This document shows positions 14,420 through 14,520 of a stretch of DNA of 59,010 bases, piece by piece. The number at the start of each line of letters is the position of its first letter. Positions within the stretch are counted from its first letter, which is position 1. Below the pieces are notes generated by a model. That model did no database searches and was not told the DNA's origin. It worked only from the letters and a program-made list of their open reading frames with translations. This DNA comes from a virus (Duplodnaviria; Caudoviricetes). Made by a program: the position numbers and the translations under genes. The stretch spans positions 1-59,010 of the IMG/VR virus record IMGVR_UViG_3300030330_002105; one strand, 5' to 3'.

Positions 14420-14445
14420 TGAAACCTTTTAAAGAAACTTACGTA
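14420..14445 (+). promoter_or_regulatory. ECF-sigma-like promoter TGAAAC-N16-CGTA
   Basis: Same motif and spacing as eight other copies. Confidence 0.7.
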
Positions 14446-14451
14446 TAGGTA

Positions 14452-14520
14452 GGTGTTTGATTATTCATAATTTCATGTTATGTTTATTGGTTAGAGGGGG
14501 CTTTAGAGTCCCCTTTTTTT
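14452..14520 (+). ncRNA. Candidate trans-acting antisense sRNA against early-gene leaders
   Basis: Bounded by promoter and terminator; contains ATTCATAATTTC and TGTTTATTGGTT, complementary to early mRNA start regions; 5' end estimated. Confidence 0.6.
14495..14520 (+). terminator. Intrinsic terminator
   Basis: AGGGGGCT-ttag-AGTCCCCT plus T run. Confidence 0.85.

Follow-up and report, generated by a model that had tools for sequence, protein, structure and literature searches.

A Putative Trans-Acting Antisense RNA Gene in an Uncultured Marine Flavobacterial Podophage

Introduction

What is the role of a short intergenic element on the + strand of a phage genome that carries its own promoter-like motif and terminator, and whose sequence is complementary to the starts of genes on the opposite strand, about 30 kb away? 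The question is raised by positions 14420–14520 (hereafter, the unit) of the virus record IMGVR_UViG_3300030330_002105, which was analyzed over its full length of 59,010 bp (hereafter, the window) and whose completeness is put at 94% in IMG/VR. A preliminary description of the unit, made from the letters of the sequence, had proposed that it encodes a small RNA (sRNA) antisense to the leader and start codon of many small − strand genes, and that this RNA could silence the whole set. Judged by its sequence, we consider the unit a plausible gene for a trans-acting antisense RNA of an uncultured marine flavobacterial podophage, with about an even chance that this reading is right.

The proposed targets form an array of 18 small genes (38–192 aa) on the − strand (44430–49513). 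They have a common leader, uauaAACCAAUAAAaaacuaGAAAyUAUG, which is found with the − strand genes between 44418 and 49513. The array proteins are not detectably paralogous: a single pair is related with E = 7e-5, and all other pairs have E > 0.08. The leader is thus not merely a by-product of recent gene duplication, but has been kept independently of the coding sequences that follow it.

Anatomy of the Unit

The unit lies in the intergenic region 14418–14558, between a gene for a 246-aa protein (13677–14417; PHROG, function not assigned) and a gene for a 94-aa protein (14559–14843). It starts 3 nt past the stop codon of the 246-aa gene, with no terminator between the two. Its first part is a promoter-like element of ECF (extracytoplasmic function) sigma type (14420–14445, +), consisting of a −35-like box, GAAACC, a 16-nt spacer and a −10-like CGTA. 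GAAACC is the form in the window; the box reads GTAACC in 14 of 15 variants of the unit, followed by the same N16 and CGTA. A transcript from this element would start about 7 nt after CGTA and end within a T run, giving a predicted RNA of ~65–70 nt (14452–14520, +) with a minimum free energy of −18.5 kcal/mol and a z-score of −2.9. An intrinsic terminator had been claimed at 14495–14520, and a terminator scan indeed found one at 14493–14520 (+), comprising a G+C-rich stem-loop (14493–14516) and the T run. It is a strong terminator, with a stem of 9–10 pairs followed by at least 7 T, and it is directional, since no T run follows the stem on the − strand. Directly beyond it, a host sigma-A-type −7 box, TACCTTTG (14523–14530, +), serves the 94-aa gene; this box is outside the predicted RNA and bounds the unit.

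Two parts of the body face the leaders. Block 1, ATTCATAATTTC (14463–14474, +), is the complement of GAAAUUAUGAAU, a stretch of the array genes that runs across their AUG. The seed candidate, UUUAUUGGUU (14483–14492, +), is complementary to AACCAAUAAA of the leaders, and is unpaired in both the centroid and the consensus folds. Hairpin 1 (CAUAAU...GUUAUG; 14466–14482, +) has an invariant stem, with five unchanging pairs and one more that alternates between U-G (12 variants) and U-A (three), while its loop is UCAU, GAAA or GUAA in relatives.

The self-contained arrangement of promoter, body and terminator was thus borne out, with a promoter that belongs to a family (see below) and a terminator found by the scan. 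On sequence grounds, the unit would have its own promoter, as a trans-acting sRNA gene should, and a Rho-independent terminator ending a short transcript, with no conserved open reading frame (ORF) on either strand of the body. A nine-codon − strand ORF had been raised as a possible alternative product. It reads MNNQTPTYT in the window and MNKQTLTYT or MNNKHLPIRKFF in relatives, or becomes a longer peptide in another frame, beginning with MKTKHLPIRKFREKVT or MKTNTYLYVSFFKRLQ; indels of 1–2 nt after the ATG shift its frame, and with the frame varying among the variants there is no conserved coding sequence. There is no array-type promoter motif on the − strand of the window outside the array, and so none that points leftwards into the unit, and the nearest upstream TAnnTTTG box on that strand, at 14919, is ~400 nt from the unit. 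No Rfam family was found anywhere in the window at the gathering score. In 14380–14580 there were only sub-threshold matches, the best being L20_leader with 26.5 bits (gathering score, 58.7), and the c4 family gave no match there even at E ≤ 10.

Complementarity to the Array Start Regions

The + strand at 14463–14492 is the complement of both conserved leader blocks, in the right order, with a spacer of 8 nt compared to ~6 nt in the leaders. All of the matches in the preliminary description, among them three two-block sites, are exact substrings of this stretch. The best target site consists of the leader and AUG of gene 47041–47217 (47212–47239, −), with complementary runs of 12 nt (47212–47223) and 10 nt (47230–47239), a duplex energy of −26.7 and a free-energy difference upon cofolding (ddG) of −24.2 kcal/mol. 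The site at the DUF7178 gene 48603–49181 (49177–49199, −) has 9 nt (49177–49185) and 12 nt (49188–49199) with a ddG of −18.1, and that at the first array gene, 49247–49513 (49510–49531, −), has 8 nt (49510–49517) and 12 nt (49520–49531) with a ddG of −18.8. Through block 1, contiguous matches extend over 12 nt in gene 47217, 11 nt in 45333, and 9 nt each in 45592 and 45789. The sequence TTTATTGGTT occurs nine times on the + strand (14483, 17127, 44558, 46078, 46794, 47026, 47230, 49190 and 49522), while its complement does not occur there at all; CATAATTTC is found at 14466, 45331, 45590, 45787 and 47215.

The 43-nt body (14452–14494) has a mean duplex energy of −18.07 kcal/mol with 17 array start regions. 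Among 500 dinucleotide shuffles of the body, which averaged −12.25 ± 1.55, one reached this value. None of 3520 genomic 43-nt windows did so (−6.99 ± 1.89; windows sampled in 32-nt steps along both strands, leaving out the cis-antisense region), and the best of these windows was one that overlaps the unit. Cofolding of the 69-nt RNA gave a mean ddG of −15.4 for the 17 array genes, compared to −7.15 for 58 other curated starts (Mann–Whitney p = 4.8e-8). Array genes made up 15 of the 17 best predicted targets, the two outsiders being −35432 and +52561, and 16 of 17 array genes had a ddG ≤ −8. When the body was shuffled, 3 of 300 sequences reached the observed mean, and none reached the observed number of 15 targets at ≤ −13. 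The complementarity of the body to the array leaders is thus beyond chance, and it reaches distant targets through an accessible region, as would be required of a trans-acting sRNA. The claim that the unit is antisense to the leader and AUG of small − strand genes more than 30 kb away is supported by these exact matches and by both the duplex and the cofold statistics, including the comparison with shuffled sequences that had been called for.

The third among the predicted targets, gene −35432 (ddG −19.7), is outside the array. In the leader of the 112-aa gene 35429–35767 (site 35432–35460 on the − strand), a run of 12 nt, AAUAAACAUAAC, is perfectly complementary to a central part of the predicted RNA.

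Within the array, part of the leader doubles as C-terminal codons of the gene before it (e.g., ...QLNK*). As a result, unrelated array proteins end alike, in ..FIKQLNK, ..HFNQLNK, ..LFNQNK or ..ITNINQ. Two others end in ..IVTF where the −35 box of the next promoter overlaps the stop codon. The boundaries between array genes look like those of reusable modules. A 38-aa ORF at 44430–44546 (−), too short to pass a 50-aa ORF cut-off, has a hydrophobic C-terminal half, an array-type promoter (44603) and an AACCAATAAA leader, and is probably a real small membrane protein.

Promoter Class

The unit had been described as sharing a promoter class with its targets, with TGAAAC as the upstream box. In its literal form, the pattern is weak: TGAAAC-N14–18-CGTA has two matches where 0.35 are expected, and at least two were found in 5 of 100 shuffles. 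The unit does, however, belong to a real family, G[TA]AACC-N14–16-CGT[AT], with seven copies in the window compared to 0.6 ± 0.76 expected (200 block shuffles, maximum 3). One of the seven is the unit itself (+), and the other six are found 30–40 nt upstream of array start codons (−), so the shared class stands. The copy at 47251–47275 (−; GTAACC-N16-CGTA) is upstream of gene 47217, the best predicted target; further strict-class promoters (−) start at 49238, 47567, 46123, 45382 and 44603, and a looser form, with GTAACA, starts at 48596 (−).

ECF promoters have an AAC-containing −35 box and a CGT-containing −10 box ~16 nt apart, and this arrangement is present in the unit of the window as well as in 14 of the 15 variants. 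In Flavobacterium, a CGT −10 box is the mark of ECF-type promoters and TAnnTTTG is the sigma-A −7 box, according to PMC9723704. In the window, TAnnTTTG boxes are located 12–36 nt before many + strand genes, including the box at 14523 for the 94-aa gene, and none serves the array. The CGT −10 box and the lack of a TAnnTTTG box serving the array make both the array and the unit look ECF-dependent.

Sigma70_r2 (PF04542) and r4_2 (PF08281) had no match at E ≤ 1 in the six translated frames of the phage (PF04545 was not searched), and a Pfam search of 10 mid-size phage proteins revealed no sigma factor. We considered the DUF7178 protein, the product of the second array gene (192 aa; 48603–49181, −), as a phage sigma factor. 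Its AlphaFold model is all-helical (pLDDT 94, pTM 0.87) and has no structural match in the PDB at E ≤ 0.001, and so gives this candidate no support. It is possible that the array and the unit use a host sigma factor.

With a looser pattern, a second ECF-like copy on the + strand was found at 55918–55975 (GTAACA-N16-CGTA). It has the same TAGGT start as the unit, followed by a small hairpin and a 135-aa gene at 55975 (function not assigned).

Conservation and Fold

A search with the 246-aa protein returned 76 loci. The five closest (86–90% amino acid identity; four lineages including the window) retain the whole unit. Across the window and these five relatives, 83 of 103 positions of the unit are invariant, whereas in the adjacent gene this holds for 97 of 247 third-codon positions, and the pairwise identities among the six sequences are 0.85–0.92 for the unit and 0.60–0.76 for the third-codon positions. 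The divergence of the gene remains high up to its stop codon (7 of 30 third positions are invariant in 14307–14396). The low divergence is therefore confined to the intergenic unit, an argument for purifying selection, and the question of whether relatives keep the unit can be answered in the affirmative. In these protein-anchored relatives, both promoter boxes are invariant while the spacer varies.

A pattern anchored on the promoter part of the unit, leaving the body and terminator free to vary, was used to collect 22 metagenome and 15 viral loci. Together with the window, this gave 38 loci (several contigs are present in both collections) and 15 distinct sequences. TTCATAA, TTATG and TTGGTT are invariant in all 15 variants, and 12 of them keep the whole seed, TTTATTGGTT, unchanged; variation is found in the loop of hairpin 1, in the sequence preceding block 1, and in the terminator. 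All 15 fold alike, into hairpin 1, an unpaired seed and the terminator. Two pairs of the terminator show compensatory changes; hairpin 1, being invariant, offers no evidence from co-variation. In three variants its loop is GAAA or GUAA, and these belong to the GNRA tetraloop class on the + strand only. In two lineages, L130 and L138, the seed is altered from UUUAU to AAUGU. Both are fragments without array sequence, and a scan of viral contigs for leaders matching the altered seed gave at least 117 single-match loci, with nothing array-like among those listed, as expected of chance matches only.

The unit is retained beside at least four different downstream gene starts, three versions of the terminator and one different upstream gene end. 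More distant relatives (L007–L012, 56–60% identity; six inspected) have the stop codon, a terminator, a TAtcTTTG box and then a gene starting MIN.VRNT, with no unit. This gene corresponds to the window gene at 15244, which follows a terminator at 15152–15175 and a box at 15220. From this comparison, the unit and a small promoter–gene cassette appear to make up a clade-specific segment of ~730 nt (~14418–15150).

The 94-aa gene after the unit (within the region 14559–15129, +) is replaced or strongly diverged in L003, L004 and L124–L141, where the gene starts read MAKFLKVP.., MAKFLSIP.., MQKY.., MSNF.. or MEKF.., and it is absent from the more distant relatives inspected. It thus behaves like a variable cassette within the structural module.

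Co-Occurrence of Unit and Array

Two other viral genomes, G006 (59.9 kb, 99% complete) and G007 (42.6 kb), contain the unit together with a − strand array that has the same leader and promoter class. In both, the unit RNA is predicted to prefer its own array over a background of all ORFs ≥60 aa, spurious ones included (−13.1 versus −6.2 in G006, −12.4 versus −5.5 in G007; p ≈ 3.5e-8 each). Five complete distant relatives (G001–G005) have no repeated leader or anti-leader and no comparable promoter cluster, and neither the promoter nor the leader family is present in 25 DUF7178-bearing viral contigs (≤75% identity). Two candidate repeats in G005 were rejected as a coding tandem repeat and a terminal repeat. 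The unit and the leader family thus travel together, which may reflect a single evolutionary origin.

Genome Context

Genes on the + strand of the window are for the large terminase, the portal, structural proteins of the virion, and a pair of giant proteins 1875 and 2400 aa long. The − strand, read from ~49.5 kb down to 33.7 kb, carries the small-gene array and then genes for a Sak-type single-strand annealing protein (SSAP), a PDDEXK-like protein, a primase/helicase, a helicase and an exonuclease. Gene content of this kind, with small genes upstream of the primase/helicase, SSAP and exonuclease block, suggests that the array consists of early genes. A search for tRNA genes gave none.

By the 467-aa structural protein, the nearest cultured relatives are Maribacter phage Panino (53%), the Flavobacterium "elemo" podophages (48%) and Cellulophaga phages. 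A distant blastn search of 13600–15200 against cultured phages gave one weak match, which does not include the unit. At least part of the window is present in 20 of the 24 sequencing runs listed, 18 of them DNA and two RNA (RNA shares, 0.14 and 0.11), and the DNA runs are marine metagenomes. The earlier assignment to a phage of the Bacteroidota (Flavobacteriia) is reasonable in light of these relatives and runs. Among metatranscriptome contigs from four RNA runs, X19 and X20 match 12200–13609 only, and X21 and X23 match nothing.

Between the divergent gene blocks there is ~1.5 kb of non-coding sequence (49514–50990) with direct repeats and several inverted repeats. It includes three copies of ATTCCAGATA at 50715–50755, two tandem copies of TGTCACAGAAA at 50599–50620, and a 21-nt pair 297 nt apart, and these may be origin or regulatory iterons. 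The gene that follows (50991–52574, +) is preceded by a sigma-A-type box at 50959 and encodes a 527-aa GroEL-like chaperonin of the phage, which matches PHROG 5725, "chaperonin groEL" (E 5e-136).

Discussion

If the unit is an RNA gene, an ECF-sigma-type promoter of the array's class would start a + strand RNA of the predicted length, which would end at its own terminator; the same sequence might also be carried at the 3′ end of the mRNA of the upstream 246-aa gene. The unpaired seed UUUAUUGGUU would pair with AACCAAUAAA, which in many array mRNAs occupies −24 to −15 relative to the AUG. If hairpin 1 opened, AUUCAUAAUUUC of block 1 would let the duplex continue over the AUG. Flavobacterial translation initiates on unstructured A-rich leaders without a Shine–Dalgarno sequence, and a duplex formed there in the infected cell should therefore block initiation; alternatively, it might present a site for a double-strand RNase. 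In either case, the array genes would be damped or shut off as a group. More tentatively, a host ECF sigma factor of the envelope-stress type might drive the array while the sRNA, under the same class of promoter, pairs with the common leader and acts as an incoherent feed-forward timer, an RNA counterpart of T4 RegA. In this way, phages of the Bacteroidota, a phylum not known to have Shine–Dalgarno-led initiation or Hfq, would gain their first described regulatory RNA. We consider this extended scheme possible but rather unlikely as a whole. The host mRNAs that the preliminary description named as further targets may likewise be affected.

A number of observations weigh against a trans-acting antisense RNA. 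T-rich shuffles themselves pair well with A-rich leaders (mean ddG −10.5), so the excess for the unit, ~2.4 sd, is real but moderate. At least nine contiguous complementary nucleotides are present in only 9 of 17 array genes, compared to 5 of 58 others. While 16 of 17 genes at ddG ≤ −8 are in keeping with the claim that the RNA silences the whole array, these nine make "whole" an overstatement. An nhmmer profile of the 17 leaders missed the − strand of the unit (14463–14492) even at E < 100, as a result of the 8-nt rather than ~6-nt spacer between the blocks. There is one RNA gene for at least six target promoters of the same class, a stoichiometry from which silencing is not obvious, and no cognate sigma factor was identified in the phage by the PF04542 and PF08281 searches or by the DUF7178 structure search. 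In most relatives block 1 is shorter by 1 nt. The bases changed in L130 and L138 lengthen hairpin 1, which would fit selection on the structure rather than on the seed, though it can be read either way. The three genomes that have both unit and array share an identical seed, leaving no room for co-variation of seed and leader to show. In the pattern-anchored loci, the promoter boxes were fixed by the search pattern itself and their conservation in the 38-locus set is uninformative, and the background in the G006 and G007 comparisons includes spurious ORFs.

The unit might instead act in cis, as a promoter plus attenuator that produces a short terminated leader and allows regulated read-through into the 94-aa gene and the structural genes, by analogy to lambda pR′-tR′. 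The anatomy of that system (promoter, ~70 nt, terminator, genes) is matched by the unit, which is directly upstream of a gene and at the start of the clade-specific segment that carries it, and it may therefore have a role in cis. The anti-leader sequence would then be a by-product of the origin of the cassette, through inverted duplication of a promoter–leader piece of the array, and the hairpin and single-stranded stretch would be conserved as a site for a protein or antiterminator. The invariant stem of hairpin 1 and the seed variants that extend it would agree with such a site, and the effect in trans is a predicted one. However, the 94-aa gene has its own sigma-A-type box past a strong terminator, and the unit is kept while the start of the downstream gene changes between relatives. 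No antiterminator turned up, although no search was aimed at one. Nor would a cis role account for the fact that no other part of the genome complements the array leaders as well as the body does (0 of 3520 windows). We regard it as unlikely. Another view, which takes the unit as no more than the 3′ untranslated end of the late 246-aa mRNA, either a stabilizing end or a late antisense tail that titrates array mRNAs, would leave the promoter-like motif unused. It draws on the short distance to the stop codon, which in variant L131 even overlaps the −35 box, and on the missing terminator between gene and unit, and many late mRNA copies would ease the stoichiometry problem. Invariant boxes around a variable spacer, as in the protein-anchored relatives, are, however, the pattern of a used promoter, and the motif belongs to a family of seven where 0.6 are expected. 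Such a tail appears improbable, and it overlaps with a trans-acting RNA, being the same pairing mechanism on another carrier.

Descent from the array is the simplest origin for the unit, and on its − strand a leader-like AACCAATAAA is followed by an ATG and a short ORF. Both the leader and the unit are limited to a single clade. The unit could be a remnant with no function as an RNA: recombination would have left an inverted copy of an array gene start, since decayed, which only recent common ancestry or hitch-hiking has kept. In a variant of this explanation, it would be a − strand element, either a mini-ORF or a transcript antisense to the 246-aa gene. Against this, the unit is far better conserved than the adjacent synonymous sites and persists across different flanks; the mini-ORF shifts frame among variants, the − strand has neither an array-type motif outside the array nor a TAnnTTTG box within ~400 nt, and the terminator works in the + direction only. 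A relic is, in our view, quite improbable.

An RNA acting in trans on a leader common to a whole class of phage genes would represent a new regulatory layout. It would offer a way into the control of translation in Bacteroidota, whose initiation relies on A-rich leaders that lack structure, and would point to ECF-type promoters as an early-gene strategy of phages. Although the phage is uncultured and the evidence is computational, the prediction is concrete, with the seed, the targets and the compensatory changes all specified.

Comparison with Known Systems

The c4 RNA of phages P1 and P7 pairs through two blocks, a′ and b′. It is a phage antisense RNA of the immI region (Citron and Schuster 1990, cited in PMC8198154). 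Like c4, as described in PMC8198154, the candidate is a small phage RNA that is not encoded opposite its target and that is predicted to block expression through short blocks near the translation start. Unlike the candidate, c4 is in the operon of its target, is processed from that transcript, and acts on a single icd–ant message in a temperate immunity circuit, according to the same source. The unit is ~30 kb from its putative targets, has its own promoter-like motif and terminator, and faces the shared leader of up to ~17 genes. It thus lacks the same-operon location and maturation of c4, and it matches no curated Rfam family in sequence and structure.

P22 sar, lambda OOP and aQ, and PAK_P4as15 are cis-antisense phage RNAs of small size; they act as repressors of phage genes through base pairing, which for some takes place at the translation start (PMC12197685). 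The predicted action of the candidate is similar. In the accounts given there, these RNAs are perfect complements encoded on the opposite strand of a single target, whereas the complementarity of the candidate is partial, in two blocks, in trans, and directed at many targets. The gene opposite the unit is not a target; the targets are at 44.4–49.5 kb.

Host sRNAs of the DapZ and MicL type are found at the 3′ ends of genes in enterobacteria, where they have their own promoter, share the terminator of the mRNA, and depend on Hfq. The unit resembles them in having a promoter at or just after the upstream coding end and a seed just 5′ of a shared Rho-independent terminator. It differs from them in being of phage origin, and to our knowledge Bacteroidota have no Hfq. 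The DapZ match to the region of the unit is below threshold (18 bits; gathering score, 56). From the same host phylum come Rfp18 (PMC9723704) and GibS (PMC7366714), short structured RNAs reported, by prediction or experiment, to pair with several mRNAs via one single-stranded region. Unlike the unit, both are host-encoded, and neither is related to it in sequence. Matches to FopS (19.4 bits) and BTnc201 (18.4 bits) are also below their gathering scores of 56 and 105, respectively.

In the review PMC12197685, the phage small RNAs known so far either control one gene in cis or work in trans, with host genes or a single phage message as targets, and the words "Bacteroid" and "Flavobacter" do not occur in it. 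The literature that we searched contained no phage sRNA in Bacteroidota phages and no leader-wide phage antisense RNA, which is not proof of absence. A parallel at the level of the regulon is a protein. T4 RegA (122 aa) competes with the ribosome at A+U-rich, unstructured initiation regions, including the AUG, of ~30 early mRNAs (PMC3014915). Like RegA, the candidate would be a single phage factor imposing a post-transcriptional shut-off over a transcriptional program; unlike RegA, it would be an RNA that recognizes its targets by base pairing. If this is correct, the class-wide translational shut-off that is a protein's job in T4 would here be accomplished by base pairing.

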